Shown in pieces: positions 18,315-54,760 of a stretch of DNA of 64,000 nucleotides. This stretch comes from an uncultured bacterium (GTDB lineage: Bacteria > Verrucomicrobiota > Kiritimatiellia > RFP12 > UBA1067), in the NCBI GenBank assembly GCA_902802945.1, contig CADCOC010000003.1, forward strand, positions 1,089 to 65,088, written 5' to 3'. Position numbers and translations under genes: made by a program. How positions within the stretch are numbered: position 1 is the first letter of the stretch; the number at the start of each line of letters is the position of its first letter. The notes below the pieces were generated by a model that saw nothing but the letters and a program-made list of their open reading frames with translations, was not told the origin of the DNA and searched no databases.

Positions 18315-19157
18315 ATGACAATCCCAACTCATCATTTCAACTTGCATGACGGAGCCCGTGGGGGCGCGAAACCCCTGATTCTGGTCGTCGACGATTCGAA
18401 CGTCGCGCGGACCATCATCCGCATCACATTCCAGAACGACTTCGAGGTTCACGAGGCTTCGGACGGTACCCAGGCCATTGAGATGCTGCGCAGGGGCGAG
18501 TACAACTACTCCGCCATCATGCTTGACCTCGTCATGAAGGAGGTGGACGGATGGGCGGTGCTGAAGTTTCTGCGCGAAAGCGGCATCATCAAGACGGTGC
18601 CAGTAGTGGTGGAGACTGCCTCGGCCATCGAACTTGAGACGGTCACAGAGCTATATGAGTGCGGTGCGTGGGGAGTGATTGGCAAGCCCTTCGACGGAAA
18701 GATGCTGCTGGCGCTGGTGAAGGCCGTCTGCAAGCGGGCGAACGCCGCCGTCGCCGCCATCGCCTCCGCGGGCGGGGAGCTCAACGCCGTCCTCGAGGGG
18801 ACCGCCGCCGCCGTCTTCGCGGTCGATGCCGTCACGGGGAAGATCGTGCGCGCCAATGGCCGTTTCAACGCGCTGGTCGGCTACTCGCGGACGGTCGGCT
18901 TTACGCTTGCGGACGTCGTGGGGCAGAAAGCCGAGCTCTTCAACGGGATTGTCAAGAACACGGTTGATTCCGGTTCCGGAGGTCCCGTCCTGGTTGACTC
19001 GCTCAAGCCCAACCACGTGGACGTGCTTTTCTGCGAGCTGATGAAGTGCTCGGGTGCCCGCAACGACCTGGTGGTGGGCACGCTGATGGACATCACCGCG
19101 ATGGTGAACCGTCTGCGCGAACTTGAAGCTGCAGTGGCGGCGGGGAGGAGGGCCTAA
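18315..19157 (+). CDS. response regulator receiver + PAS-like domain, no recognisable output domain
   Basis: REC motifs LILVVDDS, MLDLVMKEVDG and VIGKPF. The C-terminal ~120 aa are PAS-like (AVFAVDAVTGKIVRANGRFNALVGYS...). Confidence 0.75.
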   Translation: MTIPTHHFNLHDGARGGAKPLILVVDDSNVARTIIRITFQNDFEVHEASDGTQAIEMLRRGEYNYSAIMLDLVMKEVDGWAVLKFLRESGIIKTVPVVVETASAIELETVTELYECGAWGVIGKPFDGKMLLALVKAVCKRANAAVAAIASAGGELNAVLEGTAAAVFAVDAVTGKIVRANGRFNALVGYSRTVGFTLADVVGQKAELFNGIVKNTVDSGSGGPVLVDSLKPNHVDVLFCELMKCSGARNDLVVGTLMDITAMVNRLRELEAAVAAGRRA

Positions 19158-20240: not shown

Positions 20241-20241
20241 T

Positions 20242-21072: not shown

Positions 21073-21077
21073 CCGAT

Positions 21078-23236: not shown

Positions 23237-23261
23237 TCCAACAAACAACTACAACTACAGC

Positions 23262-24317: not shown

Positions 24318-27194
24318 TCAATTGCGGAGGGGTGGAGTAGAAATGGCCTTGCCAAGGGTGGCGGTCGTGATGGGTTTGAGAAGTATGCCGTTGAATCCCA
24401 TGTCGGCGCACGTCACCCGCGATTCCACGTCGGCCGTCACTGCGATGACGCGCAGAGACGCAAGCGCAGGATTGGCGCGAATGGCGTGGATCAGACCCGC
24501 ACCATCCAGATTCGGCATCCACATGTCCGTCAGGACGAGGTCAAATGCCTTTGCACCCTGCTCTTCCAGCACCTTGAGCGCCTCCTGCCCGTCAGACGCC
24601 ATGGCGATCTCGAAATCGCCCATGTTCTTCAGAAGCGCCTTGAGGACCATGAGGTTCATCTTCGAGTCGTCCACAAGGAGGATCCTGTGCGGCATTTGCT
24701 CGGGAAGGGTGCTCTGCTGAGCGTCCGCTGGCGGATTGACGCGCTCCTGCGCGTCCGGCTTTGACTTCGCGATTTTCACGTTCGGAATGAACACCGAGAA
24801 CGTGGAACCTACGCCGGGGGTTGATTCCACCTCCAACCCGCCGCCCATGGCCGCCACGAGCTGCTTGCAGATGGCGAGGCCGAGTCCCGTACCGCCGTTG
24901 CGGGAGATCTTGGAACCGACTTGGACGTATGCCGAGCCGATGCGCTTCAGATCCTCCTCGCTGATGCCGCAGCCGGTATCTTCGATCTCCAGTCGCAGCA
25001 CGCCAGTGTCCGCGTCTTTTCGTCGCTCGAAGCTGGCATGGAGCTCCACGTACCCCTTTTCGGTGAACTTGACGGCATTGCCGACGAGGTTAAACATGAT
25101 CTGGCGCAGGCGCTGCGGGTCGAGCATCAGAAGGGGCATCTCCTCGGCACGGCACCTTAGCTCGACGCCCGGCCTACCGCTGGAGGCGCGGAACGACTCC
25201 ATCACGACGCGCATAAGACGGGAACAGTCCGTGGGTTCGGGGAGTATCTCCATCTTTCCGCTTTCCAGCTTCGAGAGGTCCAGCACGTCGTTGACTAGTC
25301 CCAGCAGGGTCTTGCAGCTCATGAGGATGGAGTCGATCGCCTCCTTGCGCTCGGCCTCGGTCTTGAAACCGGATTCGAGCATCGTCGAGTAGCCGATGAT
25401 GGCGTTGAGTGGCGTGCGGATATCATGGCTGACGGTGGAGAAGAAATAGCTTTTGGCTGCGGCCTTCTCCTGCTCCATGTCGCGTTCACGGCGACGAAGG
25501 ATCGCGTAGAGGCCGAACATGAGGGCAAGGGCAAAGAGGTTGAGCCCGGTCTGGACGAGATTGCTGCGGAAGATTGAACCTTCCACATTGGACAGGTTCT
25601 TCCGCAGGGTGGCGTGCCATTCGCCGTCGTCCCTGGACGTGCGGTTCGCGGCGTCTCGGTTGATGATGGCGTCGAATGCCGTTTCCGTCGTCTCGTGGGT
25701 CGTCTGGCGTATCCACATCACCGACAGGATCATGATGATCACGAAGAGGGAAATCCATGCGACGGAAGACCTGCCGAAGCGGTGCGTGCTGTCGCGGTGG
25801 AAGACGGTGATGAAGGTGGCGAGGGCGGCAATGCACCAGATGATCAGGACGAGGTAGGACTCCGTGGCGATCAGGGTGGTGTCGAACGCCATGAACGGCA
25901 TGACGAAGAGGAAGATGACCGCGATTGAAATAGCAAGTCCGAGGAGGCCCGTCGCCTGCGTGCGCTTGTTGCCCTCCTTGCGCGCGATCTTGAACGCCGC
26001 AGCCGAGGTGTAGGCGTAGGCCACCGCCGCGCCGAGGATCGAGATGTCCACGACGACGCCGATGACCGCCCGCCCCAGCGGCACCACGAGGGCGACCAGC
26101 GCCGCGACGGCGAGAACGGCGTTGCGCGGGACGCCGTCCGCGTTCCTCCCTCCCAGGAACGACGGCAACGCGTTGTCGTCCGCCATCGCCGCCACCAGGC
26201 GGCTCACCGCCACGGTGTTGCCGACGAGGTTCGTGAAGATGGCGCCGACCAGCGTAAGGCCGATGACGACCCCGCCCGCCTTCCCGAGAAAACGGCGGGC
26301 CACATCAAACGCATGGTAGTCGGGCTCGCTTCCGGAGTTGGCCAAGTCGGCCACGGCGCCAGTCCAGCCGGCAGAAGAGGCGTCGCCGAACGAGAGAACC
26401 GGGATGGCGGTCAGAAGCGCGTAGGCGATGACCGACGTGACGAGCGCCGCGAGCATGACCCGGAAGGACTTGCTGACGGGGAACCGGAATTCCGAGGACG
26501 AATTCGAGATGGACTCGAAACCCACGAAGAGCCACGGCGCGATGGCGAGGATGTTCAGGACCTGGAAAAGGCCATGTCCGCGATTGGGGGCGAAAACCGG
26601 GTACATCGTTGCAAGTCCGCCGCTGTGGTTCAGCGCCGCCGCCGCGAAGCAGACGAGGATGCCGGCGGCAAGTACGACCGCCATCACCGTCTGCACGACG
26701 CCCGAAAGGCGGCGGCGGCAGCAGATGGCGGTGGCGACGGCAATGGTGGAGACGGAGAGCAGGATGTCGCCGAGGTAGATGTCGTTTTTCTGGATCGTGT
26801 AGCGGAACCCGAAGCTGAAGACGTCGCCCAGCGTGTAGCGCGCCACGACCACCAGCGCCGTCACGTCAAGGCAGATGATAGCCAAGTAGGCAAAGCCGAG
26901 AAAGACGCCGCAAAGGTATCCGTGGTCGTTGCCAAACGCCTTCGCCGCGTAGGTGTACGATCCGCCCGGTCCCGGCTGTCGGTTGATCATGTAATGGAAG
27001 TTCCACGCGACTACTGTCATCACAAGCCCGCCGATGAGGATGCCGATCACCGTGCCGAGCGGTCCGGCCTTGGGCAGGAAATCGATCCAGGGCATAACGA
27101 AGGCATCGGAACCCACGGCGCAGCCGAAGGCGAGCGCCCACGCACCCAGCATCGAAAGATGCCGCATGGAAGACTTTATCGTGCCATCGTTCAT
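24318..27194 (-). CDS. APC-superfamily permease domain fused to hybrid sensor histidine kinase (HisKA-HATPase-REC)
   Basis: The N-terminal ~470 aa are polytopic with an amino-acid-permease-like start (LSMLGAWALAFGCAVGSDAFVMPW...GPGGSYTYA). Then: H-box FFSTVSHDIRTPLNAIIGY; N/G boxes FNLVGNAVKFT, EDTGCGIS, GGTGLGLAI; receiver LLVDDSKMN...LVLTDMWMPNLDG...LLKPI. Confidence 0.8.
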   Translation of the reverse strand: MNDGTIKSSMRHLSMLGAWALAFGCAVGSDAFVMPWIDFLPKAGPLGTVIGILIGGLVMTVVAWNFHYMINRQPGPGGSYTYAAKAFGNDHGYLCGVFLGFAYLAIICLDVTALVVVARYTLGDVFSFGFRYTIQKNDIYLGDILLSVSTIAVATAICCRRRLSGVVQTVMAVVLAAGILVCFAAAALNHSGGLATMYPVFAPNRGHGLFQVLNILAIAPWLFVGFESISNSSSEFRFPVSKSFRVMLAALVTSVIAYALLTAIPVLSFGDASSAGWTGAVADLANSGSEPDYHAFDVARRFLGKAGGVVIGLTLVGAIFTNLVGNTVAVSRLVAAMADDNALPSFLGGRNADGVPRNAVLAVAALVALVVPLGRAVIGVVVDISILGAAVAYAYTSAAAFKIARKEGNKRTQATGLLGLAISIAVIFLFVMPFMAFDTTLIATESYLVLIIWCIAALATFITVFHRDSTHRFGRSSVAWISLFVIIMILSVMWIRQTTHETTETAFDAIINRDAANRTSRDDGEWHATLRKNLSNVEGSIFRSNLVQTGLNLFALALMFGLYAILRRRERDMEQEKAAAKSYFFSTVSHDIRTPLNAIIGYSTMLESGFKTEAERKEAIDSILMSCKTLLGLVNDVLDLSKLESGKMEILPEPTDCSRLMRVVMESFRASSGRPGVELRCRAEEMPLLMLDPQRLRQIMFNLVGNAVKFTEKGYVELHASFERRKDADTGVLRLEIEDTGCGISEEDLKRIGSAYVQVGSKISRNGGTGLGLAICKQLVAAMGGGLEVESTPGVGSTFSVFIPNVKIAKSKPDAQERVNPPADAQQSTLPEQMPHRILLVDDSKMNLMVLKALLKNMGDFEIAMASDGQEALKVLEEQGAKAFDLVLTDMWMPNLDGAGLIHAIRANPALASLRVIAVTADVESRVTCADMGFNGILLKPITTATLGKAISTPPLRN

Positions 27195-30076
27195 GATGCA
27201 TCCCCTCCCTTGCCCGACAAGGTCTGCTCAAGCGCAGCGGTCGTGATGGGCTTCAGCAGAATGCCGTCAAAGCCCATCTCGGCGGCCTTGTTGCGGATCT
27301 CCACGTCGGCTGTCACCACGAGAACGCGCAACGACGAGAGCGCCGAGTTCGCGCGGATGTCCTTCACAAGTCCCTCGCCGTCCAGGTTCGGCATCCACAT
27401 GTCCGTGAGGACGAGGTCATACGGCTTGGCGCCCGGCGCTTCCAGGACCTTCAGGGCCTCCTGCCCGTCCATCGCCAGCGTGGTCTCGTAGTTGCCGGCC
27501 TTCTTCAGAAGCGCCTTGAGGACCATGAGGTTCATCTTCGAGTCGTCGACTAGGAGGATGCGGTGAACCGGATGCGACGACGCGGCGGGGGGCTTGTCCG
27601 TGGTCTTGTCTGCGGTTTTGTCCGAGGCGGCGGGCGCGGGCGCCTCCGCCAGGACGGTCGCCCGGACGCCTGGAAGCACGATCTCGAAGGTGGAGCCTTT
27701 CCCGAGCGCGGACGTCACCTTCAGTTCGCCGCCCATGGCCTTCACGAGCTGGTTGCAGATGGCGAGGCCAAGCCCCGTGCCGCCGTTGCGCGCGAGCTTG
27801 GCGCCCACCTGCACGTATGCCGAGCAGATGCGCTTCTGGTCCTCTTCGGTGATGCCGCAGCCGGTATCCTCGACCGACAGGCGGAACACGCCCTTCTCGG
27901 CGTCCTTCAGGCGCACGTAGTTGGCGCGCAACGTCACATGGCCCTTCTCCGTGAACTTGACGGCGTTGCCGACGAGGTTGAACACGATCTGCCGCAGACG
28001 CTGCGGGTCGAGCATCAGCGCGGGCATCTCCCCGATTTCGCAGCGCAGTTCCAGCCCCGGTTTCTTGCCCGAGATGCGGAAGGCGTCCATGACGCCGCGC
28101 AGAAGACGCGGACATTCCGTGGGCTCCAGGGCGATCTGCATCTTTCCAGATTCGAGTTTCGAGAGGTCCAGTACGTCGTTGATGAGCCCCAGGAGAGTCC
28201 TGCCGCTCACGAGAATCGAGTCAAGCGCCTGCTCGCGCTCTGCTTCGGTCTCGAAGCCCGCCTTGAGCATCTCCGAAAAGCCGACGATGGCGTTGAGCGG
28301 CGTGCGGATGTCGTGGCTGACGGTGGAGAAGAAGTAGCTCTTCGACATGGTCTTCTCGTGCTCCAGACGTCGCTCGCGCCGACGCAGCATGGCGTAGAGG
28401 CTGAACATGATCGCAAGGGAAACGGCCATCAAGCCGGCCTGGACGAGGCCGACGTGGACGAGCGAGTTGTTAACGGAGTCCAGCTGGCTCGTCATGTTGG
28501 CGCCCCAGCCGTTGTCCCTGGCTTCTTTCGGGTCTGTAGCGCAGATCTGTTCATGGAAGAGGTTTATTTTGGAAAACGACTGCTTCGTGGTGTCGAACGT
28601 CGCCTGGCGCATCCACATGTGGGAAATGAAGAAGATCATCACCAGAAGGGCGATCCACACGATCGTCGAGTGCCCAAAGCGATGGTCCTGGTCGCGGCCG
28701 AAGAGGATTCGGTAGACGACGAATCCAAGAATGCACCACAGAACGAGGATGAGGTAGGATTCGGTCGCCATCATGCTGCCCGCGAAATAGTTCGGCAGGA
28801 TGAAGAGGATACAGATTCCACCCGAAAGCAGCAATCCGCTGATTCCCATTACCTTGCCGAGTCGGCTACCGGTGGCGCGCGCAGTCCGGAACACGGCGGC
28901 GGAGGTGTAGGCGTAGGCGATTGCGGCGCCAATGGTCGCGACGTCCACGATGAAGCCGATCGCCGTCCGCCCGAGGAAAGGAATCAGGAGCGACACGCCC
29001 GCGACAAAGATCACGGCGGCCGTCGGCGTGCCGTCTGCGCCCTTCGCGCCCAAGCGGGCGGGAAGGAGGCCGTCGTCGGCCATCGCGCCCAGAAGCCGGC
29101 TGGAGACCGTCATGTTGCCGACGAGGTTGGTGAAGATCGCCGCAAGGGCCGTTACGCCTATGACGGCGGTTCCGACACGGCCCAAGACCCGGGACGCCGC
29201 CGCGAACGTGGGCAGCGAAGGCGCGCCCACCTGTCCGTCGAGGTGCGCGACGCTGGCCGGCCAACCGCCGGCGTCCCCCGGTGCAAGCGCGGGAAGGACG
29301 ACAAGGAACGCGTATACGAACGCGGACGTCACGACCGCCGCGACCATCACCTGGAATGTCTTCCGACGCGAGAAGCGGAACTCGCCGGACAGGTTCGAGA
29401 TCGCCTCGAACCCCACATAGAACCAGGGGGCCAGCGCGACGATCTTGAGAACCTGCGAGACAGGCGCAGAGCCATCCGGTGCGAAGGCCGGCGCCGCCAC
29501 GCGCAGGTCGCCGCCGCAGTGGAACACGGCCGCCCCGAAGCAAACCGCGATGCCGAGCGCGAACAGGACGGCCAGGACGGTCTCCACGTAGCCCGCAAGG
29601 CACCGCCGGCAGTTGATGGCGGCGGCGACGAGGATTGCAGCTCCCGGAAGCAGGATGTCCCCGAGATAGACGTTATAGCCCGCAATGCTGTAACGGAAAC
29701 CAAAACGGAGTGCGTCGCCGAACAGGCAGCGCGCGACGATCGTGAGCGCCGTGGCGTTCGCCCAGACGATTGCCATGTAGGTCAAGCAGAGAAACCACGC
29801 GCAGAGGAAGCCGTGGTCGACGCCGAAGGCCTGGGAGGCAAACGCAAACGCGCCGCCGGGTCCGGGATAGCGGCGGGTCATGTAATGGTAGTTCCAGGCG
29901 ATGACGGCCATGATCGCGGCGCCGACGAACACGCCGATCGTCGTTCCGAGCGGTCCGGCCTTCGGCAGGAACATGGTTCCGGGCATGACGAGCGAGCCCC
30001 AGCCGACGGCCGTTCCAAACGCAAACGCCCAGGCGCCAAGCCTCGAGAGATGTCGTGAAGACGTCGCCTGCTTCAT
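27191..30076 (-). CDS. APC-superfamily permease domain fused to hybrid sensor histidine kinase (paralog of the downstream gene)
   Basis: Same architecture as the adjacent gene: LSRLGAWAFAFGTAVGWGSLVMP...GPGGAFAFA; FFSTVSHDIRTPLNAIVGF; FNLVGNAVKFT; EDTGCGIT; GGTGLGLAI; LLVDDSKMN...LVLTDMWMPNLDG. Its stop overlaps the next start by 4 nt (ATGA). Confidence 0.8.
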   Translation of the reverse strand: MKQATSSRHLSRLGAWAFAFGTAVGWGSLVMPGTMFLPKAGPLGTTIGVFVGAAIMAVIAWNYHYMTRRYPGPGGAFAFASQAFGVDHGFLCAWFLCLTYMAIVWANATALTIVARCLFGDALRFGFRYSIAGYNVYLGDILLPGAAILVAAAINCRRCLAGYVETVLAVLFALGIAVCFGAAVFHCGGDLRVAAPAFAPDGSAPVSQVLKIVALAPWFYVGFEAISNLSGEFRFSRRKTFQVMVAAVVTSAFVYAFLVVLPALAPGDAGGWPASVAHLDGQVGAPSLPTFAAASRVLGRVGTAVIGVTALAAIFTNLVGNMTVSSRLLGAMADDGLLPARLGAKGADGTPTAAVIFVAGVSLLIPFLGRTAIGFIVDVATIGAAIAYAYTSAAVFRTARATGSRLGKVMGISGLLLSGGICILFILPNYFAGSMMATESYLILVLWCILGFVVYRILFGRDQDHRFGHSTIVWIALLVMIFFISHMWMRQATFDTTKQSFSKINLFHEQICATDPKEARDNGWGANMTSQLDSVNNSLVHVGLVQAGLMAVSLAIMFSLYAMLRRRERRLEHEKTMSKSYFFSTVSHDIRTPLNAIVGFSEMLKAGFETEAEREQALDSILVSGRTLLGLINDVLDLSKLESGKMQIALEPTECPRLLRGVMDAFRISGKKPGLELRCEIGEMPALMLDPQRLRQIVFNLVGNAVKFTEKGHVTLRANYVRLKDAEKGVFRLSVEDTGCGITEEDQKRICSAYVQVGAKLARNGGTGLGLAICNQLVKAMGGELKVTSALGKGSTFEIVLPGVRATVLAEAPAPAASDKTADKTTDKPPAASSHPVHRILLVDDSKMNLMVLKALLKKAGNYETTLAMDGQEALKVLEAPGAKPYDLVLTDMWMPNLDGEGLVKDIRANSALSSLRVLVVTADVEIRNKAAEMGFDGILLKPITTAALEQTLSGKGGDAS

Positions 30077-30098: not shown

Positions 30099-33000
30099 TC
30101 ATTCTATTCCGAACAGGGCCCTCAACTTTGCAGCCGTCACCGGCTTGGAAATTACCTTCGCGAACAGGCTCATGTCGTACGACGAGCCTATGTCGACGTC
30201 GGCGGTCACCGCGACTACGGGAATCTCCGCGAGCCGCCTTTCCTTCCGCATCATCTCCGCGAGCTGCGTGCCGTCCATTCTCGGCATCCACATGTCGGTC
30301 AGCACGATGTCCGGCACCCACTCGTCCATGACCGCCAGGGCGGCCTCGCCGTTTATCGCATAGCGTATGTCCTTGATCTTCAGGTTCGCGAGGTGGATGC
30401 CGAGGATCTTGCGGTTCATCGCCATGTCGTCCACGACGAGGACGCGGTCCGGCAGCACCTCGCGGATCGCCTGCTCCGCGGCGCGCGGAGCCATGGAGAT
30501 GTTCTGCACCAGCTCGAGGTTGGGGATGTCGATGAAAAACGTCGTGCCCCTGCCGAGTTCGCTCTCCGCCCGGATCGTGCCGCCTGCGCCGTCCACCATG
30601 CGCTTCACGATCGGGAGGCCGAGTCCTGTGCCCTTGATCTCGCCGGCGCTGGCCTGCATCCGGCTCGCGATGTCCTGTATGAACGGATCGAAGAGTTTTT
30701 CCATCTTGTCCTTCGAGATTCCGCAGCCCGTGTCGCTGATCTCGATGTGAAAGGTCCTCGTCGCGCCGTTCCACCTCACTTTGACGACTATCTCGCCGCG
30801 GTCCGTGAACTTGGACGCGTTCCCCACGAGGTTAATGAGTATCTGGCGCATTCCCTGCTGCGCGAGCACGACGATTGGAAGCTCTTCCGGCGGCGGCGCG
30901 TCGATCCGGAGCTTGACGCCGTGGCGTCGCACGCGGTAGCCGAAGATCGCCGGAAGCTCCCGCAGGAGCTGGTCGATGTCGCATGCGCCCGAGCGCATCT
31001 TCATCGCGCCAGCCTCGAGCTTGGAGAGGTCGAGGATGTCGTTGATGAGGTCCAGCAGGGCGTTCGCGCTCAGGAGCATGCCGTCGGTGTACTCCCCGCG
31101 GAGCTTCTCGTCCAGGTCCTTCTGCGTCATGAACTCGGCGAAGCCGATGACGGCGTTGAGCGGCGTCCTCAGCTCGTGCGACATCATCGCGAGGAAGCGC
31201 GTCTTCGCCTGCGCGTGGTCCTCGGCCACTTCGGCGGCCTTGTTGGCTCGCCTCGTCTGGCGGACGAGCATGGTGATCATCACGGAGCCGAACAGGACGA
31301 CCAGTACCAGGATGACCGAGGCCACGACCGCTATGGTGTGCGTAAGCTCGTCCTTCGTCATGCCGAACAGGCGGTGTACCACTTGGCGCTCGGCCACGTC
31401 TGCCATGAACATCTCCTGCAGATGCGTCTGGTCTATGCCCGTCATGACCTTGTTCAGAATCGACACGAGCTCCTGCGGCACGCTGGGCCGTGCGAACAAC
31501 TCGAACTCCTGATACAGGTCTTCTGCGCCGAGATCCTGTGCGGCGGATTGCGGCACGGGGACCGCGAACACCGACGTCGCGCCGTACGTGGCGGCGGACG
31601 CCTTTGCGGGATAGGGGACCCAGAGGTCCGTGTCGCCTCGGAGGAACTTTGCCTCTGCGGTCGTGATGTCTGTCTGCGGCGCGAGTTTTATCGTGAGGCC
31701 GGTCCGCGCGCTGATCTCGTCCAAGAGGTTGCCCACTAAGCCCGTCAGATTGCCCTGCTTGTCCACGAGGGGGAAGGGCCAGGGCGAGAAGTCGATGACG
31801 ACCGGCGAGGTGTTCAACTGACGGCGCGCGAGCCAGTTGCTCTCCGCCAGGGAGAGCGCGGCCATGTCGCTGTGCCTGCCGTAGTGGCGCTCGCTGATCA
31901 TGCGGAGGTACTTGGGGAAGTCGTCGCAAATGCTGTCCAGCGCATTCTCCAGCTCCTCGAAAAGGTCCTTGCGCTGAAGCGACGTGCAGATGTACATCGG
32001 ATGCGACGCATAGAGGTGGAGAGCCTTCTCGTTCATCAGCTCCGGCATCTCGACGTCCACGCATGCGTCAACGGTCCCCTTGGCGTATGCGGTGAGCATT
32101 TCGCGGTCGGACGAGAACTCCACGCAGGAGATGCTCGGTTCGTTGGCGAACTGGCGGCGGGCGCGCTGCGCGCTGATCGAGCTGGCGAGTAGGCCGACCT
32201 TCATCCCGTGCCAGGTCTTCGGGTCGCCGGGCTTGTACGGGCTGTCCGGCTTGGCCCAGAGGTAGACGCGGAGCATCCCCATGGGCGTGTGCGGATAGCG
32301 GAAGGTGTCGCGGCGCTGCGGCGTGAAGCCCACGCCGCCCACGACGTCCAGCCGGCCGCTCTGAACGTCCGCGATGCTCTGGTCGTAGTCGCCATAGACG
32401 TAGTCAAGGTTCCAGTGGGTGTGGCCGACGATGGACTTCATCCACATTTCGAGCGCGCCCGACCGCTCGCCGTCTGGCGACACCTCGAAAAGGTCGCCGC
32501 GGCTGTACGCCGCCACGCGCACGCGCCTGCCCGGCTTCGGGACGCCGAGGAACTTCTCCCTCAGGGCGTCGTACCTGTCGATGTTGTTGATGTAGCATTC
32601 GCGGTAAGCCCTTTCGAGCTTCTTCAGGAGCTGCGGGTTCCTCTTGCTGACGGCGAAGTACACGTTGCGCGAGCCGATCGGCACGACCTCCACTACCCCC
32701 TCCGGGCGCTTGCCGAACGGCGTGTAGAGGAAGAGCGCGTCGATCTCGCCGTCGTGCAGGGCCTTCACCGCGCCGGCGCTGGTGGGAATTTCCACGTAAG
32801 TCGGCGACAGGCGGGCGTGCTCGAAGTACTTCACGCGGTCGTCGTTGGAAATCTGCCCCTGCGACACGGGCGAGTAGCCGATGCGCATTCGCGGCCATTC
32901 CGTGATCTTCGTGGACATCAGCTCCATCGCGCGCGACGGCGTGGCGTACAGCGCGAAGTGCATCAGCCCAAGGGGCTGGACGGGGAAGTCGAAGTCCTGC

Positions 33001-33314
33001 AGCAGTTTGCTCGTGCGGAACGCGGAGCATATCACGTCGGCTGTTGCCGCGTCCATCATGTGGTCCTTGCCGAACTCGAGGCGGACGGTCTCCACGCCGG
33101 CCGTCTTGAACACGTCGGACATCACCGCAGTGCAGAAGTCGTTGTCAGCCTTCGCCCAGAAGTCGAGTTCGGGGTCGCGCTCGCAGTCCGCGACCCTGAC
33201 GCTTTCGGCATTCGCCGAAAGCGAATGTAAAATGAAAAGTGTAAAGTGTAAAATGAAAAGTGTAAAGCGTAAAAGGGTGGCGCGGGCCGACTTTACACTC
33301 TCAAAACTTGCCAT
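30099..33314 (-). CDS. BvgS/EvgS-like hybrid sensor kinase with tandem periplasmic solute-binding (SBP family 3-like) domains, HisKA-HATPase-REC, no Hpt
   Basis: Signal/anchor sequence, followed by at least two SBP_bac_3-like segments (VRVAAYSRGDLFEV...GRLDVVGGVGFTPQRRDTFRY; VVIDFSPWPFPLVDKQGNLTGLVGNLLDEISARTGL). Then a TM helix (IAVVASVILVLVVLFGSVMITML); H-box FLAMMSHELRTPLNAVIGF; INLVGNASKFT; SDTGCGIS; GTGLGLPI; REC VLVVDDMAMN...IVLTDMWMPRMDG. Confidence 0.8.
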   Translation of the reverse strand: MASFESVKSARATLLRFTLFILHFTLFILHSLSANAESVRVADCERDPELDFWAKADNDFCTAVMSDVFKTAGVETVRLEFGKDHMMDAATADVICSAFRTSKLLQDFDFPVQPLGLMHFALYATPSRAMELMSTKITEWPRMRIGYSPVSQGQISNDDRVKYFEHARLSPTYVEIPTSAGAVKALHDGEIDALFLYTPFGKRPEGVVEVVPIGSRNVYFAVSKRNPQLLKKLERAYRECYINNIDRYDALREKFLGVPKPGRRVRVAAYSRGDLFEVSPDGERSGALEMWMKSIVGHTHWNLDYVYGDYDQSIADVQSGRLDVVGGVGFTPQRRDTFRYPHTPMGMLRVYLWAKPDSPYKPGDPKTWHGMKVGLLASSISAQRARRQFANEPSISCVEFSSDREMLTAYAKGTVDACVDVEMPELMNEKALHLYASHPMYICTSLQRKDLFEELENALDSICDDFPKYLRMISERHYGRHSDMAALSLAESNWLARRQLNTSPVVIDFSPWPFPLVDKQGNLTGLVGNLLDEISARTGLTIKLAPQTDITTAEAKFLRGDTDLWVPYPAKASAATYGATSVFAVPVPQSAAQDLGAEDLYQEFELFARPSVPQELVSILNKVMTGIDQTHLQEMFMADVAERQVVHRLFGMTKDELTHTIAVVASVILVLVVLFGSVMITMLVRQTRRANKAAEVAEDHAQAKTRFLAMMSHELRTPLNAVIGFAEFMTQKDLDEKLRGEYTDGMLLSANALLDLINDILDLSKLEAGAMKMRSGACDIDQLLRELPAIFGYRVRRHGVKLRIDAPPPEELPIVVLAQQGMRQILINLVGNASKFTDRGEIVVKVRWNGATRTFHIEISDTGCGISKDKMEKLFDPFIQDIASRMQASAGEIKGTGLGLPIVKRMVDGAGGTIRAESELGRGTTFFIDIPNLELVQNISMAPRAAEQAIREVLPDRVLVVDDMAMNRKILGIHLANLKIKDIRYAINGEAALAVMDEWVPDIVLTDMWMPRMDGTQLAEMMRKERRLAEIPVVAVTADVDIGSSYDMSLFAKVISKPVTAAKLRALFGIE

Positions 33315-33327: not shown

Positions 33328-33636
33328 TTAGAGCTGTTCCGCGAGCGCCTTCATGTCCGCGATGAGCTGTGCCGCCTGGCCGCGATCCTGCGACTTGGCG
33401 GCGCTGCGGAGCGCAATGGCAGCATCGGCCATCTGCTGGTCGCCGGCGGCGAGCGAGTTGCCCTTGACGGTGTGCGCCACCTTGTCCAGCGTGTCCCACG
33501 CGCTTGTGGCCAGCGCCGCGTCGGCCTCGGCCGTCTTGGCACCGACGGAGGAGACGTACTCGGCGTAGATCGCGTCCACGACCTCCGCGTCGTCCCCGAA
33601 CTGTTCGTTCAGGTATTTTTTGCAGCATTCCTTCAT
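33328..33636 (-). CDS. stand-alone histidine phosphotransfer (Hpt) protein
   Basis: 102 aa, helical, with the Hpt signature HTVKGNSLAAG. It lies 13 nt upstream of the BvgS-like kinase gene on the same strand. Confidence 0.75.
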   Translation of the reverse strand: MKECCKKYLNEQFGDDAEVVDAIYAEYVSSVGAKTAEADAALATSAWDTLDKVAHTVKGNSLAAGDQQMADAAIALRSAAKSQDRGQAAQLIADMKALAEQL

Positions 33637-33905
33637 GGTTTACTCCTTTTCCGTATAATTGCCCAACTTGATATGGTCTCTACAGGTTTTTACCGTTGCT
33701 CTAATCTTACGGGCGGATATAATACCATATTCGAGCATTTACTGTAAAGCGGGAAGATGTGAAATTCGTAACTGCTTTTTCTGGATTACGGCTTGTTTCC
33801 CGCCAGATGGCGTGGTAAAATATACGTTGGTTTTCAACCAGAAAAAAGGTGCGGTAGCAATGAATCAGTAAGAAATTGGAAGGAGTCCGTCTGAACGGTA
33901 CGTCC
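33637..33905. promoter_or_regulatory. AT-rich divergent promoter region between the Hpt operon (-) and the 7TM kinase/T3SS genes (+)
   Basis: Clear local drop in GC. A sigma70-like candidate on the + strand: TTGCTC (33696-33701), 16-nt spacer, TATAAT (33718-33723). A second TATAAT is at 33654-33659. No experimental support. Confidence 0.35.
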
Positions 33906-35729
33906 ATGCACAACCATTTCTACTACTATTTCTATTCAATCGTGTCAGGTATCGCGCTGTGCGTTCACCTGATAATCAACTGGCATCAGCTTGTCAATAG
34001 GCCAAGCGACAAGGCGCATGTCGGTGCGCTTGAGTTCAGGCATTTCCTCGTCTATCTGTCGGTCTTCTTCGTCACAGACGTCCTATGGGGCGTGTTCGCT
34101 GCGTTTAAATGGCCGCGCGTCCTATACGCCGATACGTTCGTGTTCTTCGTCGCCATGGCGCTTTCCGTTCTTACGTGGACGCGCTTCGCGGCCACGTACC
34201 TGGAACTGGAAGGCAAGGCGCGTGCGTACCTGTTGTGGTCGGGGCGCGGAATGATGGCGTTCTTCATCGCCGCACTTCTGATGAACGGTTTCACCGGCAT
34301 TTTCTTCACGATCGACTCTCAGTGCGTATACACCGCCGGGCCGTTGCGCCAGCTGGCGTTCTCGCTGCTGGCCGCGTTCAACGCGATCGCCTCCGCGATG
34401 ACGCTGCACAAGGTGTTTCGCACGGAGGGCAAGACGCGCCGGCACAACAAGATGGTGTTCGCATTCGGAGTCTCGATGACGGCGGCGATCCTGATCCAGC
34501 TCTGCGACCCGCTGATTCCGTTCTACTCGATCGGGTGTCTCTTCGGGTGCTGCTTCCTGCACGTGTTCGTGGTCGAGGACGAACGCGACGAGATGCACCG
34601 GCAGGAGCTGCTCGCGCGCAGCTACGAGGCGCAGCTCGAAGCCGAGCGCACGGCGACTCAGGCAAAGAGCCTATTCTTCTCAAGCGTTTCGCACGACATC
34701 CGCACGCCGCTCAACGCCATCATCGGCTTTTCTGAACTGCTCGAAAGGGGCGTGGGGGACGAGGACGAGCGCTCGCGCTGCATTTCATCCATCCGCTCCA
34801 GCGGAAAGGTCCTCTTGCGGCTCGTGGACGACATCCTCGACCTTTCGAAGCTGGAAAGCCGGAAGCTGGAGATCGTCGAGGAGCCGACCGACATTCCGAC
34901 GCTCGCCCGCGAAATCATTGCGGCATGCGAAGTCGCACGTCAGCGCAAGTCGCTGGCACTGAAAACCGAAATCGGGGAAATGCCGTGGGTCAGCGTGGAT
35001 CCGCAGCGCATCCGCCAGATCCTCTTCAACCTTCTGTCGAACGCTTACAAGTACACGGACCACGGCACGATCACGGTTCGCGCCCTCTGGCAGGACGGCA
35101 CGCTGTCGCTCTCGGTGGCGGACACGGGCAAGGGCATATCGGAGGAGGACATCGCCCGCATCCTCCAGCCGTTTGTACAGCTGGCCGACAGGAACCACCG
35201 CGACGGCACGGGACTCGGTCTGCCTATATGCCAGAGACTCGCCGCGCTCATGGGCGGGAAACTGGAGATCGCCTCAAAGGTCGGCGAGGGCTCGACATTC
35301 ACGGTCACCATCCCCAACGTCAAAACAGTCGCTCCACCGGCAAAACATTTGGAGGATTGTGCGCATTTGGGGCATACCCCGTCCCGCGTCCTCGTCGTGG
35401 ACGACTCCCCCGTCAACCGCGCGGTGCTCAAGGCCATGCTGGCGAAAAGCGGCGTGGCCGAGGTCGTGATGGCGCAGAACGGACGCGAGGCCCTTGCTGT
35501 GCTGGAGGGCAATGGCAATTTCGACATCGTGCTTTCGGACCTCTGGATGCCGGAGATGGACGGCTACGGACTGGTGAACGCCATCCGCGCCGACGCAAGG
35601 TTCTCGCGCCTCCCGGTCTATCTCCTCACCGCCGACGTCGAGGCGCGCGGCCAGCCCGAAGCAAGCGGTTTCACGGGAATCCTCCTCAAGCCAATAACAC
35701 TTGAAAAGCTACAGGAGCTGTTCGCATGA
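33906..35729 (+). CDS. 7TM-receptor-type hybrid sensor histidine kinase (HisKA-HATPase-REC)
   Basis: Seven hydrophobic helices in the first ~230 aa and no large extracytoplasmic domain. H-box FFSSVSHDIRTPLNAIIGF; FNLLSNAYKYT; ADTGKGIS; GTGLGLPI; REC VLVVDDSPVN...IVLSDLWMPEMDG...LLKPI. ATG 33906 is preferred over the TTG at 33876 (RBS GGAAGGAG at 33878-33885). Confidence 0.8.
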   Translation: MHNHFYYYFYSIVSGIALCVHLIINWHQLVNRPSDKAHVGALEFRHFLVYLSVFFVTDVLWGVFAAFKWPRVLYADTFVFFVAMALSVLTWTRFAATYLELEGKARAYLLWSGRGMMAFFIAALLMNGFTGIFFTIDSQCVYTAGPLRQLAFSLLAAFNAIASAMTLHKVFRTEGKTRRHNKMVFAFGVSMTAAILIQLCDPLIPFYSIGCLFGCCFLHVFVVEDERDEMHRQELLARSYEAQLEAERTATQAKSLFFSSVSHDIRTPLNAIIGFSELLERGVGDEDERSRCISSIRSSGKVLLRLVDDILDLSKLESRKLEIVEEPTDIPTLAREIIAACEVARQRKSLALKTEIGEMPWVSVDPQRIRQILFNLLSNAYKYTDHGTITVRALWQDGTLSLSVADTGKGISEEDIARILQPFVQLADRNHRDGTGLGLPICQRLAALMGGKLEIASKVGEGSTFTVTIPNVKTVAPPAKHLEDCAHLGHTPSRVLVVDDSPVNRAVLKAMLAKSGVAEVVMAQNGREALAVLEGNGNFDIVLSDLWMPEMDGYGLVNAIRADARFSRLPVYLLTADVEARGQPEASGFTGILLKPITLEKLQELFA

Positions 35730-35862
35730 TGCTATCCGGTAAAAATCTTCCCAGATTCGCGCAATTACGCTTGAAAATAATTTTGGAAAAAATTTTGTAA
35801 CCTTGTCTTGGGTGGTGCGTATACGGGGCAACCAAACAACTTTTCAAAGAAGGAGCAACAAA

Positions 35863-37380: not shown

Positions 37381-37408
37381 GAAACTGCAAAAAGAAGGGA
37401 GAAAAACA

Positions 37409-38209: not shown

Positions 38210-38261
38210 CCGACGGAGTCATTTTTTCACCAGTTAAAACCCAACAGAAAGGAACCAGAAA

Positions 38262-38753: not shown

Positions 38754-38823
38754 TTGTACCGGGGGCGTAACCTTTCCGTAGGTTGCGCGTAAACAGGGCA
38801 AAGAGAAAACGGAGGTACAACAA

Positions 38824-40193: not shown

Positions 40194-40205
40194 GGAGCGT
40201 GCGCC

Positions 40206-51604: not shown

Positions 51605-51671
51605 CCTTAAGTTGCCTTAAGTTTCTTAAGTTTTTTCTGTGATTGCGCGGAGAGGGGGATTTTGGTATCAT
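51605..51671 (+). promoter_or_regulatory. three phased CCTTAAGTT repeats followed by a sigma70-like promoter candidate upstream of the guaA-like gene
   Basis: ccttaagtt / ccttaagtt / cttaagtt starting at about 51605, 51615 and 51625, a spacing of about one helical turn. These are followed by TTGCGC (51643-51648), a 17-nt spacer and TATCAT (51666-51671). Confidence 0.35.
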
Positions 51672-51753
51672 TTCGGCGTTGCGGCGCGTGGCGCGACCGG
51701 CGGGACGCGGGTTGCCTCAGTATGCCGTGATTTTCAAGGAAAAGGAAAAACAG

Positions 51754-52761
51754 ATGAATCAGGCAGAAAAGGAACGCGCCGCGAAAGTCGGCAAGAAGCT
51801 GAACGTCAAGGCCTACATCAAGGCCGAGATCGAGGCGATCCGCGCCCAGGTGGGCGACAAGAGGGTGTTGCTGGCGATGTCCGGCGGCGTCGACAGCTCC
51901 GTGTGCGCGGTGCTGCTCCACAAGGCCATCGGCAAGAACCTCACGTGCGTGTTCGTGGACCACGGCTGCATGCGCCTCAACGAGGCGAAGGAGGTCAAGA
52001 AGGTCTTCAAGGGCAAGTTCGGCATCAACCTCATCCAGATCGACGCCGAGAAGCGTTTCCTCGACAAGGCGAAGGGCATCACCGACCCCGAGCTGAAGCG
52101 CAAGTGCATCGGCGGCGAGTTCATCACGCTGTTCGCCGACGTCGCGCGCGACCTCAAGAAGAAGCTCGGCGACATCGAGTTCCTCGGCCAGGGCACGATC
52201 TACCCCGACATCATCGAGTCCGGCGTGGGCGGACACAAGGCCGTGAAGGCGCACCACAACGTGGGCGGCCTTCCCAAGGACATCATCTTCAAGGGGCTCG
52301 TCGAACCGGTCAAGTACCTCTACAAGGACGAGGTGCGCAAGGTGGGCAAGGCGCTCGGCATCCCCGACGAGATGGTCATGCGCCAGCCGTTCCCTGGTCC
52401 GGGCCTCGCGGTGCGCTGCATCGGCGAGCTCACGAAGGAGAAGCTCGACATCCTGCGCCAGGCGGACTTCATCTTCCGCGACGAGATGCACAAGGCCGGC
52501 CTCGACAAGAAGGCCCAGCAGTTCTTCGCGATCAACACGAACGTCAAGAGCGTCGGCGTGAAGAACGGCGCGCGCACGTTCGGCTACGTGATCGCCATTC
52601 GCGCGATTTCCACGAGCCAGTTCGTGAAGGCCGGCGTCGTCCCGCTGCCGTTCGCGTTCGTCACGAAGGTGGCCGAGAAGATCGCCACCAAGGTCAAGGG
52701 CGCCAACCGCGTGGTGTGGGACATCACGCCGAAGCCCCCGGCCACGATCGAGTGGGAGTAA
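51754..52761 (+). CDS. guaA: GMP synthase ATP-pyrophosphatase + dimerisation domains only (no glutamine amidotransferase domain)
   Basis: RBS-like AAGGAAAAGGAAAAA upstream of ATG 51754. PP-loop LLAMSGGVDSSV; HHNVGGLP; LVEPVKYLYKDEVRKVGKALGIP; QPFPGPGLAVR; C-terminal IEWE. No GATase motifs are present upstream of 51754. Confidence 0.85.
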   Translation: MNQAEKERAAKVGKKLNVKAYIKAEIEAIRAQVGDKRVLLAMSGGVDSSVCAVLLHKAIGKNLTCVFVDHGCMRLNEAKEVKKVFKGKFGINLIQIDAEKRFLDKAKGITDPELKRKCIGGEFITLFADVARDLKKKLGDIEFLGQGTIYPDIIESGVGGHKAVKAHHNVGGLPKDIIFKGLVEPVKYLYKDEVRKVGKALGIPDEMVMRQPFPGPGLAVRCIGELTKEKLDILRQADFIFRDEMHKAGLDKKAQQFFAINTNVKSVGVKNGARTFGYVIAIRAISTSQFVKAGVVPLPFAFVTKVAEKIATKVKGANRVVWDITPKPPATIEWE

Positions 52762-52764
52762 GCG

Positions 52765-53958
52765 GTGAAGGCGAAGTCCTCCGTGAACATGGTGATCGCC
52801 CAGTCGGGCGGTCCCTCCATGGTGATCAACCAGTCCCTCGTCGGCGCGGTGCTGGCCGCCCGCGCCGCGAAGGGCATTGGCAAAATCCTCGGCGCACGCC
52901 ACGGAATCGCCGGCATCCTCGCCGGCGACTACGTGGACCTGCGCAAGCCGTCCGTCGCGAAGCTGAACGCCATCGCCGACACGCCGAGTTCCGCGCTCGG
53001 CAGCTGTCGGCTCAAGCCGTCGGCGGACGACTGCCGCAAGATCTTCGAGGCGTTCCGTCGCCGGAAGGTCGGCTACTTCTTCTACATCGGCGGCAACGAC
53101 TCCGCCGACGCCGCGCGCATCGTGGCGGAGGAGGCCGAGAAGGAGGGCTATCCGCTCGTCTGCTACCACATCCCCAAGACGATCGACAACGACCTGCGCA
53201 GTTGCGACCACACGCCTGGCTTCGGCTCGGCCGCGCGGTTCGTGGCGTGCGCGCTCAAGGGCGATGACCTCGACAACCGCGCGCTCGGCGGCGTGAAGAT
53301 CGACGTGATCATGGGACGCGACGCGGGCTTTCTCACGGCGGCGTCCGCGCTTGCCCGCGAGAACCGCGGGGACGGTCCGCACCTCATCTACCTGCCAGAG
53401 CGTCCGTTCTCGCTCGACGGGTTCGTGAAGGACGTGCAGGCCGTGATGAAGAAGGAAGGCCGCTGCGTGGTGGCCGTCTCGGAGGGTATCCGCGACGCGC
53501 AGGGCGAACTGTTCGCGAAGAAGTTCGCGGGCGGCGAACGCGACTCCCACGGCAACCTCCAGCTCTCGGGCACCGGCGCGCTCGGCGACTTCCTCGCGAA
53601 GCACCTGAAGTCCGAGGCGGGCGTCTCGCGCGTGCGCGCGGACACCTTCGGCTACTTGCAGCGCTCGTTCCCGGGTATCGCCTCGAAGACGGACCAGAAG
53701 GAGGCGCGCGCCGCCGGAGCCGCCGCCGTGAAGGCCGCGCTGAAGGGGAAGCTCACGAAGGGCACCATCGCCATCGTGCGCAAGCCGGGCGCGAAGTATG
53801 CCGTCACGTTCGAGGCGCAGCCCGTCGCGAACGCCGCGAAGTACACGCGCAGCGTGCCGGACGCGTTCATCGCGCCGAACGGACACGACGTCACGAAGGC
53901 GTTCCTCGCCTACGCACGCCCGATCGTCGGTACCCTGCCACACAGCGAAATCCTCTAG
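52765..53958 (+). CDS. 6-phosphofructokinase, PfkA-family (probably PPi-dependent type)
   Basis: VIAQSGGPSMVINQS, FFYIGGNDSADAA, IPKTIDNDL and MGRDAGFLTAA. GTG start at 52765, 4 nt after the guaA stop. Confidence 0.8.
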   Translation: MKAKSSVNMVIAQSGGPSMVINQSLVGAVLAARAAKGIGKILGARHGIAGILAGDYVDLRKPSVAKLNAIADTPSSALGSCRLKPSADDCRKIFEAFRRRKVGYFFYIGGNDSADAARIVAEEAEKEGYPLVCYHIPKTIDNDLRSCDHTPGFGSAARFVACALKGDDLDNRALGGVKIDVIMGRDAGFLTAASALARENRGDGPHLIYLPERPFSLDGFVKDVQAVMKKEGRCVVAVSEGIRDAQGELFAKKFAGGERDSHGNLQLSGTGALGDFLAKHLKSEAGVSRVRADTFGYLQRSFPGIASKTDQKEARAAGAAAVKAALKGKLTKGTIAIVRKPGAKYAVTFEAQPVANAAKYTRSVPDAFIAPNGHDVTKAFLAYARPIVGTLPHSEIL

Positions 53959-53968
53959 AACTGTTGTC

Positions 53969-54760
53969 ATGCAAATCGAAGCACACGCCAAAATCAACCT
54001 CACGCTTGAGGTGCTCGGGACGCGTCCCGACGGCTACCACGAACTGCGGAGCATCGTCGCGGCGATTCCGCTCCATGACGACGTGGAGCTACAGGACGCG
54101 CCGACGGGCGAAGTGTCGGTGGAGATGGTAGGTGACGGTCTGGAGATACCGGACGTGCCGCCGGAGAAGAACCTCGCCGTGCGCGCGGCGCGCGCCTTGC
54201 AGAAGGCGTGCGGCGTTGCGCGCGGCGTGCGCATCCGCATCGTCAAACGCATCCCCGCCGGAGCGGGGCTGGGTGGCGGCTCGGCGGATGCCGCCGTCGT
54301 GCTGAACGGACTGAACGAGCTGTGGGGGTTGGAGCTATCGACGGAGCGTTTGTGCGCGGTTGGCGCGGAGGTGGGGTCGGATGTTCCGGCGCTCGTGTTG
54401 GGGGGTGTGGTGATGATGGAAGGGAGAGGAGAGAGGGTGAGGGCGTGGGATGCGGGCGAGACGCCCGCATCATATTTGCGGGCACAGAGGCCCGCCACCC
54501 CAGCGGGAGGGCCGCGCTTGTCGCGGCCTTTCGATGAAAATTTCGTTTTGCGCATTCCGGATGTCAATGCGTCGACGGCGCGGGTATATGCGGAGTTTCG
54601 CGAAGAGGATCGCGGGAAGTGCCGAAACGATTTGCAGCCGGCGGCGTGTCGGCTCTATCCAGTCATTGCCGAAACAATCGCGGAGATGGAGTCGGAAGGG
54701 CTGGAGGGCGTCCAGATGTCCGGCAGCGGCAGCGCCGTGTTCGGGTGGAGGAAAGAGTAA
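53969..54760 (+). CDS. ispE: 4-diphosphocytidyl-2-C-methyl-D-erythritol kinase
   Basis: MQIEAHAKINLTLEVLGTRPDGYHELRSI... and the GHMP kinase motif IPAGAGLGGGSADAA. The ORF-track extension upstream overlaps pfk and is rejected. Confidence 0.85.
   Translation: MQIEAHAKINLTLEVLGTRPDGYHELRSIVAAIPLHDDVELQDAPTGEVSVEMVGDGLEIPDVPPEKNLAVRAARALQKACGVARGVRIRIVKRIPAGAGLGGGSADAAVVLNGLNELWGLELSTERLCAVGAEVGSDVPALVLGGVVMMEGRGERVRAWDAGETPASYLRAQRPATPAGGPRLSRPFDENFVLRIPDVNASTARVYAEFREEDRGKCRNDLQPAACRLYPVIAETIAEMESEGLEGVQMSGSGSAVFGWRKE

Follow-up and report, generated by a model that had tools for sequence, protein, structure and literature searches.

The window analysed here is the whole stretch of 64,000 nucleotides (64 kb) from an uncultured rumen bacterium of the Kiritimatiellia. 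Two genes lie in tandem on its minus strand, and each encodes an APC-type permease domain fused to a hybrid histidine kinase. The two proteins were named APC-HK1 (HK1) and APC-HK2 (HK2). The genes and their parts, with TM denoting a transmembrane helix, are as follows:

24318..27194, minus strand: HK1, 958 aa, ATG start; hybrid histidine kinase whose sensor has the APC-permease fold, 14 TM helices and a pocket of derived type (S29, D30, D110, V380)
25797..27158, minus strand: HK1 APC permease core, residues ~13-466, 12 TM helices (AA_permease_2, hydropathy, CAT1 and GkApcT profile matches)
25494..25784, minus strand: HK1 TM13, extracytoplasmic helical hairpin of ~51 aa and TM14, residues ~471-567, preceded by a conserved RFG(R/K)S junction (hydropathy, structure prediction)
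24759..25478, minus strand: HK1 DHp (H590) and catalytic ATP-binding domain, residues ~573-812 (HisKA, HATPase_c, motifs, HK853 match)
24330..24692, minus strand: HK1 receiver (D890), residues ~835-955 (Response_reg E 6.8e-21, motifs)
27191..30076, minus strand: HK2, 961 aa, ATG start; paralogue of HK1 with the ancestral pocket (G-W-G in TM1, W-A-N in TM3)
28691..30049, minus strand: HK2 APC permease core, residues ~10-462 (AA_permease_2, hydropathy)
27218..28366, minus strand: HK2 DHp, catalytic and receiver domains, residues ~571-953 (Pfam, motifs)

The TGA stop codon of HK2 and the ATG start codon of HK1 shared four nucleotides (ATGA), with GCATCATGAACGATGGC / GCATCATGAACG as the minus-strand junction. 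In Pfam searches, AA_permease_2 (cut-off 27) matched residues 13-435 of HK1 (93.9 bits, E 1.4e-26) and 10-430 of HK2 (81.8 bits, E 6.3e-23), covering positions 1-404 of the 427 in the profile. HK1 also matched AA_permease (E 7.6e-17). Pfam at E ≤ 1 gave no SSF, STAC, HAMP, PAS, MASE or 7TMR match in either protein and, over residues 1-570, none of the named membrane sensor domains (MASE1-n, 7TMR-DISM, 5TMR-LYT and MHYT); neither protein is an SSS (PF00474)-STAC sensor kinase. An SSS/SLC5 identity, or that of a named non-transporter sensor, was rejected for the N-terminus on these grounds, the best solved relatives being APC-family proteins.

The structure of HK1 was predicted with AF2 on the basis of 48 aligned homologues (mean pLDDT 80.7, pTM 0.65), with pLDDT values mostly of 80-95 in the permease core. 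When the model was compared with the PDB using Foldseek, its N-terminal half superposed on AdiC (5j4n_B) with a TM-score of 0.86 and a root-mean-square deviation of 3.7 Å, and on BasC (0.80-0.81), GkApcT (0.77-0.79) and y+LAT1 (0.78). A profile of the sensor domain, searched against solved structures, returned CAT1 (E 1e-22), plant CAT4 and GkApcT (E 1e-18) as its best matches. The N-terminal domain is an APC-family (TC 2.A.3-type, LeuT-fold, SLC7/CAT-like) permease domain. The first-pass annotation, made from the letters alone, had proposed an APC-type domain with a LeuT fold, and the profile matches, the predicted fold and the 12 core TM segments found by hydropathy bear it out. Curated APC subfamilies were also considered as a clue to the substrate and set aside. 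For the N-terminal 480 residues the best NCBIfam model was TIGR00905 (basic amino acid/polyamine antiporter) at 74.7 bits against a cut-off of 409, and the scores for all of the models considered (among them TIGR00905 APA, TIGR00909, TIGR00906 CAT, AdiC and ethanolamine permease) fell far below their cut-offs. The domain therefore has a true APC-family fold and lies outside every curated subfamily.

The output half of each protein was complete. HisKA, HATPase_c and Response_reg were located at residues 580-646, 692-805 and 838-951 of HK1, and at 579-644, 690-802 and 840-953 of HK2, all above the Pfam cut-offs. The H-box FFSTVSHDIRTPLNA was present, with H590 as the phospho-acceptor in HK1, together with an intact N-box (NLVGNAVKFT), G1 box (DTGCGI) and G2 box (GTGLGL). 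The receiver retained its acidic pocket (DD841-843), the phospho-accepting D890 and K940. The proteins are hybrid HisKA-type kinases with all four boxes and a complete receiver, and the C-terminal half of the HK1 model superposed on HK853 (TM-score 0.84) and on other kinase cores.

A hydropathy scan of HK1 gave, after the 12 core segments, TM13 at residues 477-495 and TM14 at 547-565, separated by about 51 residues. In the AF2 model, helices 477-517 and 525-543 correspond to TM13 and a small hairpin outside the membrane. A further helix, 546-608, ran unbroken from TM14 through H590, which lies about 23 residues from the membrane. The complete hybrid kinase had been annotated as following directly on the permease. 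Its completeness was upheld, whereas the direct junction was not: an extra TM pair with its loop stands between the permease core and the kinase, and the two are therefore joined via a TM hairpin.

An exhaustive phmmer search was performed with the 480-residue sensor as the query against 1.84 billion cluster representatives. This yielded 1424 matches at E ≤ 1e-3 and 263 at E ≤ 1e-30. The best 150 matches were typed with the window's own domains and Pfam. A kinase core was present in about 65 of these, mostly with a receiver, and the other outputs were GGDEF, GGDEF-EAL, GGDEF-REC-EAL, HD-GYP (HD_5) and LytS-type His_kinase. When a single genome for each GTDB species was scanned with the profile, the APC sensor domain came up at 596 loci at least, in several phyla. 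The best 80 of these belonged to Kiritimatiellae/Verrucomicrobia, Lachnospiraceae, Oscillospiraceae, Ruminococcus, Butyrivibrio, Blautia, Selenomonadaceae, Acidaminococcaceae, Erysipelotrichaceae, Christensenellales, Atopobiaceae, Flexilinea and Synergistaceae. Nearly all came from ruminant-gut metagenome-assembled genomes (MAGs), with one isolate, Ruminococcaceae bacterium FB2012 (L034). All 93 complete open reading frames (ORFs), from 92 loci, were fused (72 HK-REC, 17 HK-REC-REC, two GGDEF and two other kinase forms), a count that reflects a locus ranking favouring likeness to the fused query and is not a measure of the fused fraction of the whole family. Far from being peculiar to this genome, the APC-kinase architecture is part of a large family that spans several phyla and carries outputs of more than one kind. 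The names given by NCBI or the source were limited to 'amino acid permease', 'APC family permease' and generic kinase names, and the label 'amino acid permease' hides the signalling role of these proteins.

One locus of an Acidaminococcaceae MAG (L068) carried an APC-hybrid kinase (2911-5820) and an APC-GGDEF protein (~8880-11220) side by side, so that one sensor fold serves two different outputs in a single locus. TM13, TM14 and a loop of about 50 residues were kept in the kinase, cyclase and HD-GYP forms; in the LytS-type members the loop was about 16 residues. The output domain started from a few to about 25 residues past TM14. Since the extra helices are shared across output types, the sensor unit consists of the APC core plus TM13-TM14. 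No position of the TM13-TM14 loop was conserved across the family, whereas the junction after TM12 (D468, R-F-G474-R/K-S, W480) was conserved.

A word-indexed profile search also recovered stand-alone 12-TM permeases of 460-475 aa, encoded on long contigs, at 35-40% identity. A neighbour-joining tree of 232 domains separated a group of 82, of which 79 were stand-alone, from a group of 150 that were nearly all fused. The output types were intermixed within the fused group.

The substrate-site motifs of the fold, an unwound G-x-G in TM1 and (W/F)-x-x-x-G-x-(E/D) in TM6, were then inspected. TM1 reads G-W-G in HK2 and G-S-D, with the third Gly replaced, in HK1; TM6 reads PWFYVGFE in HK2 and PWLFVGFE in HK1. 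HK1 G28-S29-D30 aligned to the substrate-binding motif G25-S26-G27 of AdiC, and the family TM6 motif to AdiC W202...G206-V-E208, segments which in the AdiC structures bind the alpha-carboxylate and alpha-amino groups of the substrate. A conserved substrate site had already been suggested as a thing to look for, and the TM1 and TM6 motifs proved to be kept across 150 sensor-clade sequences, over which the pocket percentages were computed. In TM1, G24 was kept and G28, W29 and G30 were found in 97%, 87% and 87% of sequences, respectively. The corresponding values were 97%, 90% and 92% for Y103, W108 and N110 of TM3, 97%, 97%, 100%, 95% and 93% for P220, W221, G225, F226 and E227 of TM6, and 81%, 91% and 90% for W380, D383 and Y393 of TM10. 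In TM8 the conserved residues were G325, S331 and R332. The stand-alone sisters share the pocket residues and differ in flanking ones (P108, D227, P230-Q231 and F326).

HK1 and its Kiritimatiellae orthologues carry the substitutions W29S, G30D, N110D and W380V, HK2 representing the ancestral state. Asp30 occurred only with Asp110 (134 sequences), the pair otherwise being Gly30 and Asn110, and no mixed state appeared among the residue combinations listed for all aligned sequences. This covariation indicates that both positions act together in the pocket. The two new carboxylates and two lost tryptophans of HK1 tentatively suggest a larger, cationic ligand or a cation site. With a remodelled pocket in one kinase and an ancestral pocket in the other, the two most likely report different ligands; the suggestion of the first-pass annotation that two different solutes are sensed gains support from this coupled change. 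Identity between HK1 and HK2 was 50% in the sensor core, 33% in the TM13-TM14 loop, 69% in DHp and the catalytic domain, and 69% in the receiver. A diverged sensor on a retained transmitter is what one would expect if the inputs differed and the downstream partner were shared.

The remaining components of the putative relay are listed below:

33328..33636, minus strand: Hpt, stand-alone phosphotransfer protein and first gene of the operon, 102 aa (PF01627 E 1.1e-6, HTVKGNS, predicted phospho-accepting residue H55)
30099..33314, minus strand: BvgS-like hybrid kinase, 1071 aa; periplasmic SBP_bac_3 (Venus-flytrap) domains, one TM helix, HisKA-HATPase-REC
33719..33748, minus strand: promoter-like -35/-10 site (sigma-70-like), TTTACA, 18-nt spacer and TATTAT, with TG, ~83 nt upstream of Hpt (consensus match only)
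33876..35729, plus strand: fourth hybrid kinase, divergent, 617 aa; multi-TM N-terminus of ~240 aa with no Pfam match
18315..19157, plus strand: REC-PAS protein, 280 aa; weak candidate for the relay acceptor (Pfam, six-frame receiver scan)

The gene order was Hpt, BvgS-like kinase, HK2 and HK1, the APC pair standing last, with gaps of 13 nt and 22 nt and then the ATGA overlap. The ORFs, the Pfam matches and the junction sequence agree with the earlier description of two overlapping paralogues downstream of an Hpt gene and a BvgS-like kinase. Shine-Dalgarno-like sequences preceded Hpt and HK2. Transmitter identity to HK1 was 66-69% for HK2, 50% for the fourth kinase and 39% for the BvgS-like kinase, and the value for the fourth kinase marks it as a possible further input to the same relay. 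The REC-PAS protein was the sole stand-alone receiver detected by a receiver scan of the six-frame translation of the window, and it also adjoined the Hpt-kinase cassette in four further loci (L003, L008, L009 and L013).

The genomes closest to the window were ruminant-gut Kiritimatiellae MAGs. An identical HK1 protein was found on three contigs, and the fused ORF was uninterrupted at 13 loci of related species. At these 13 loci, Hpt lay upstream of the HK1 orthologue wherever the fetched sequence extended far enough upstream. The HK2-HK1 tandem recurred in seven, with the BvgS-like kinase and HK2 variably present; glycosyltransferase genes were inserted in some, and one genome had an extra APC-HK gene downstream. 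The kinases are thus genetically linked to an Hpt with an HxxKG motif, and this linkage is conserved. A survey of 60-odd genomes covered 111 ORFs next to APC-HK genes; Hpt (19) was the commonest neighbour, followed by Response_reg (17), further HisKA/HATPase kinases (14), GGDEF (10) and SBP_bac_3 (5), which makes Hpt-led hybrid-kinase arrays typical of the family across phyla. No transport, uptake or catabolic partner gene stood out among these 111 ORFs, and the genome context of the APC-HK genes therefore gives no ligand.

Two relatives had a SpoIIE(PP2C)-HATPase_c_2 protein directly upstream of Hpt (L010 2861-4567 and L006 7-1416), that of L010 with an additional N-terminal receiver, which makes it a candidate terminal regulator. 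As a conserved relay regulator this protein was rejected, the arrangement of the two relatives not being conserved in the window. In the same two loci, GT4 and WecG/TagA glycosyltransferase genes stood between Hpt and the APC kinase (L006 7993-9983, L010 7906-9983), an insertion that hints at a link to surface-polysaccharide synthesis.

The neighbourhoods of the stand-alone sisters were also inspected. P0362 (L093 4056-6407) and P0370 (L096 1262-4344), from two different organisms, were encoded in clusters for polysaccharide biosynthesis that also contained glycosyltransferases, a Polysacc_synt flippase and MBOAT, each permease gene having an ATPgrasp_TupA gene adjacent or one gene away. This context suggests amino-acid supply or export for the decoration of a cell-surface polymer. 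A third sister, from Treponema, was found beside a sulphur-transport gene and a pyridine-nucleotide oxidoreductase. As a clue to the ligand, these neighbourhoods are suggestive but not decisive.

Based on the domain order, the pocket and the operon, HK1 and HK2 are probably membrane sensor kinases in which a 14-TM input, a 12-TM APC core plus two helices, gates an Hpt relay in response to a ligand. The ligand, a small solute and probably an amine or amino acid, would bind in a conserved pocket lined by the unwound regions of TM1 and TM6 and by TM3, TM8 and TM10, and binding would shift the equilibrium of the fold between its outward, occluded and inward states. The conformational change would reach TM14 by way of the conserved RFG junction that follows TM12 and the hairpin of TM13 and TM14. 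As TM14 and DHp helix 1 form a single helix in the model, displacement or rotation of TM14 could set the balance of autokinase and phosphatase activity. This continuity, together with the lack of HAMP, PAS and STAC domains, speaks for direct coupling. AdiC dimerises via TM11 and TM12. With dimerisation of this type, TM13 and TM14 of both protomers would come to lie at the dimer axis, where the DHp bundle must form. H590 would then hand its phosphate to D890, from which it would move to the histidine of the Hpt encoded in the operon and on to a further response regulator, and HK1, HK2 and the BvgS-like kinase may feed one multi-kinase relay.

Several points weigh against this reading. No DNA-binding response regulator was found within the 64-kb window. 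The alignment of TM3 to AdiC or CAT was ambiguous, and N110 is therefore assigned to the pocket lining by inference only. The conservation of the pocket residues could reflect folding or gating and not ligand recognition, and for every member of the family it is we who infer ligand binding, transport and kinase regulation. In the tree, 15 short proteins, probably fragments, sat within the fused clade. The internal branches were short and carried no support values, so that a single origin of the fusion, as judged from the domain sequences, is likely but not proven.

The first alternative is a true transceptor or flux sensor, in which the APC domain performs full transport cycles and the kinase reads turnover rather than occupancy. 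The complete 12-TM core retains both unwound-helix motifs and the gating-type residues W221, E227 and Y393, the same motifs are present in the stand-alone sisters, and a fully retained permease core would still permit transport. Transport and signalling are combined in one protein in CbrA (PMC7096432, PMC13022988). Flux reading has been suggested both for CbrA and for co-sensor pairs of a transporter and a kinase. The fusion of all 93 complete ORFs and the separate grouping of the stand-alone permeases instead fit a dedicated receptor lineage, as with Ks-Amt5 (PMC5764959). Beside the motifs of TM6 and TM8, the sensor clade also has residues of its own, with E227 in place of D, S230-H231 in place of P-Q and N326 in place of F, and these changes together with the separate fused clade lean towards a dedicated receptor. 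Some proton-coupled APC transporters carry a coupling lysine in TM5. In the hydropathy scan, no charged residue was evident in the TM5 segment, and there were no catabolic or uptake partner genes nearby. On balance, transport-coupled sensing was judged unlikely.

A second alternative takes the APC domain as a mere membrane anchor or dimerisation scaffold, with the signal coming in elsewhere, for example through the TM13-TM14 loop, a partner protein or the cytoplasm. The loop is predicted to form a helical hairpin and is the segment in which the two paralogues diverge most (33% identity), and dependence on a partner is common among intramembrane-sensing kinases. Conservation of a transporter pocket at more than 90% across phyla, within a domain of 470 residues, is nevertheless hard to explain for an anchor. 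The lack of family-conserved positions in the loop and its shortness in the LytS-type members argue that it is not a conserved binding site, and the coupled substitutions in the HK1 pocket indicate selection on the pocket itself. This explanation is quite improbable. Lastly, the window derives from a metagenome assembly, but a chimeric assembly or read-through of separate permease and kinase genes has next to no chance of being correct and is refuted by the recurrence of the uninterrupted ORF in three contigs, 13 related species loci, 93 ORFs of independent genomes and at least one cultured isolate, FB2012 (L034).

The preferred reading of HK1 and HK2 as ligand-gated sensor kinases can be extended to a broader proposal, which is put forward tentatively and whose parts, taken all together, stand at slightly less than an even prospect. 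The 14-TM 'APC+2' module would be a distinct and undescribed class of bacterial membrane receptor. It would have arisen once from CAT/APA-like amino-acid permeases, with loss of the stand-alone transport role, and been shuffled onto histidine-kinase, diguanylate-cyclase/phosphodiesterase and HD-GYP outputs in at least six phyla of gut anaerobes. Its alternating-access motion would be coupled via TM14 straight to the output domain. HK1 and HK2 would represent neofunctionalisation in progress, in which the two-aspartate pocket of HK1 may bind a polyamine or other cationic ligand. The two kinases would signal into a single multi-kinase relay centred on Hpt, which may control surface-polysaccharide or secretion genes.

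The rest of the window was annotated as well. A plus-strand block at 18315-23777, comprising the REC-PAS protein, a KaiC-like ATPase, an AAA_22 (ExeA-like) protein, a GHL10-like protein and a PTS EIIA-2-like protein, was kept beside the cassette in L003, L008, L009 and L013. The orientation of the cassette relative to the REC-PAS/KaiC-like block varied, which points to an inversion between species. A set of genes resembling those for type III secretion occupied 35803-46774 on the plus strand, running divergently to the Hpt operon. It included a TPR class-II-chaperone-like protein (38262-38753), an SseC-like translocon protein (38824-39897), SctT/FliR (42473-43264) and SctU/FlhB (45656-46774), and among the ORFs of the region with no Pfam match were 35803-37380 and 40206-41897. 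An injectisome in rumen Kiritimatiellae would be notable. Between sctT and sctU lay a 693-aa SpoIIE(PP2C)-HATPase_c_2 fusion (43573-45654). In Bordetella, partner switching by BtrU/BtrW controls type III secretion downstream of BvgAS, and the fusion near sctT/sctU recalls these proteins.

At the other end of the window, positions 37-18269 on the plus strand formed an adhesion or exopolysaccharide-type locus. This encoded a 2120-aa adhesin (five SdrD_B plus DUF7507, CARDB and pAdhesive_15), a chitin-synthase-like GT2 protein (6425-7966), large TPR proteins, a DUF459/SGNH protein and a 1245-aa TPR plus beta-barrel outer-membrane protein. The window gave no match in Rfam or tRNA scans. An ORF of 798 aa at 51607..54003 (minus strand), which stood out by an extreme first-codon-position GC of 0.91, was rejected as a shadow ORF antisense to plus-strand genes.

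No functional description of an AA_permease/APC-family sensor kinase or cyclase was found in the full-text literature, subscription journals not being covered, in keeping with the first-pass annotation, which was aware of no characterised APC-domain sensor kinase. The literature precedents found for transporter-fused sensors were SLC5, Amt, MFS and S-component only, and TCDB lists a sensor kinase-MFS fusion family (PMC3924187). The concept of a transporter-derived sensor is already established, and the pairing of APC and kinase domains is visible to any Pfam scan. Transporter-derived receptors such as CbrA and Ks-Amt5 are described as rare in the literature, and a 2026 preprint still terms CbrA a rare transceptor (PMC13022988). 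In the gut-anaerobe family described here, a transporter has apparently been adapted to serve as a general-purpose receptor. The APC sensors would be a third and numerically large case, concentrated in anaerobes, among them the Firmicutes of rumen and gut and the Kiritimatiellae, groups in which almost nothing is known of the inputs of two-component and c-di-GMP systems. The family may show which amino acids or amines serve gut anaerobes as signals. It also offers a clean system for how alternating access controls a kinase or cyclase, having no STAC, HAMP or PAS domain, several outputs and a natural paralogue pair with a remodelled pocket.

The closest analogues are CbrA and CrbS (MxtR), SLC5(SSS)-STAC-PAS kinases of Pseudomonas and Vibrio that are candidate or proven transceptors (PMC7096432, PMC7918813, PMC13022988). 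As in HK1 and HK2, a LeuT-fold transporter domain is N-terminal to a histidine kinase, and CrbS is likewise a hybrid kinase. Their transporter domain, however, is of the SSS family (TC 2.A.21, 13 TM), whereas that of HK1 and HK2 is APC proper (TC 2.A.3-like, 12+2 TM). CbrA and CrbS couple via cytoplasmic STAC and PAS domains; HK1 and HK2 have neither, and TM14 runs straight into DHp. The APC-sensor family also includes GGDEF, EAL, HD-GYP and LytS-type outputs. Ks-Amt5, an Amt-histidine kinase described by its authors as an ammonium sensor/transducer (PMC5764959), and Sd-Amt1, an Amt-HAMP-diguanylate cyclase, resemble the APC sensors in that a transporter fold has been turned into a receptor with kinase and cyclase outputs (PMC5764959, PMC11152129). 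These proteins have the trimeric Amt/Rh channel fold and sense ammonium, whereas the APC sensors have the LeuT fold.

Yeast Ssy1 (non-transporting) and Gap1 (transporting) are, like HK1 and HK2, APC-superfamily permease folds that act as amino-acid receptors (PMC3166329, PMC6423903). Both are eukaryotic YAT-type proteins that signal via associated proteins or the PKA pathway, in contrast to the fused two-component transmitter of HK1 and HK2. AdiC, GkApcT, BasC and CAT1 share the fold of the HK1 sensor (TM-score 0.77-0.86), the TM1 G-x-G, the TM6 (W/F)xxxGxE/D and the TM10 Asp. They are stand-alone transporters of 14-20% identity to it, whereas HK1 adds the TM13-TM14 hairpin into the kinase. 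In LysP-CadC, DctA-DcuS and BceAB-BceS, the conformational state of a transporter controls a signalling protein via contacts between TM helices, LysP being an APC-family permease. Those partners are separate polypeptides, and HK1 and HK2, with a permease fold and a two-TM kinase stem in one chain, would be the covalent version. Relays of the BvgS/EvgS type also involve hybrid kinases whose receiver needs an Hpt step. There the Hpt is the C-terminal domain of each kinase, whereas here it is a separate small protein, presumably shared by several kinases. Four features set the APC sensors apart from the known analogues: they use another transporter family, lack any domain for coupling in the cytoplasm, have a 12+2 TM topology and are joined to a broad range of outputs.

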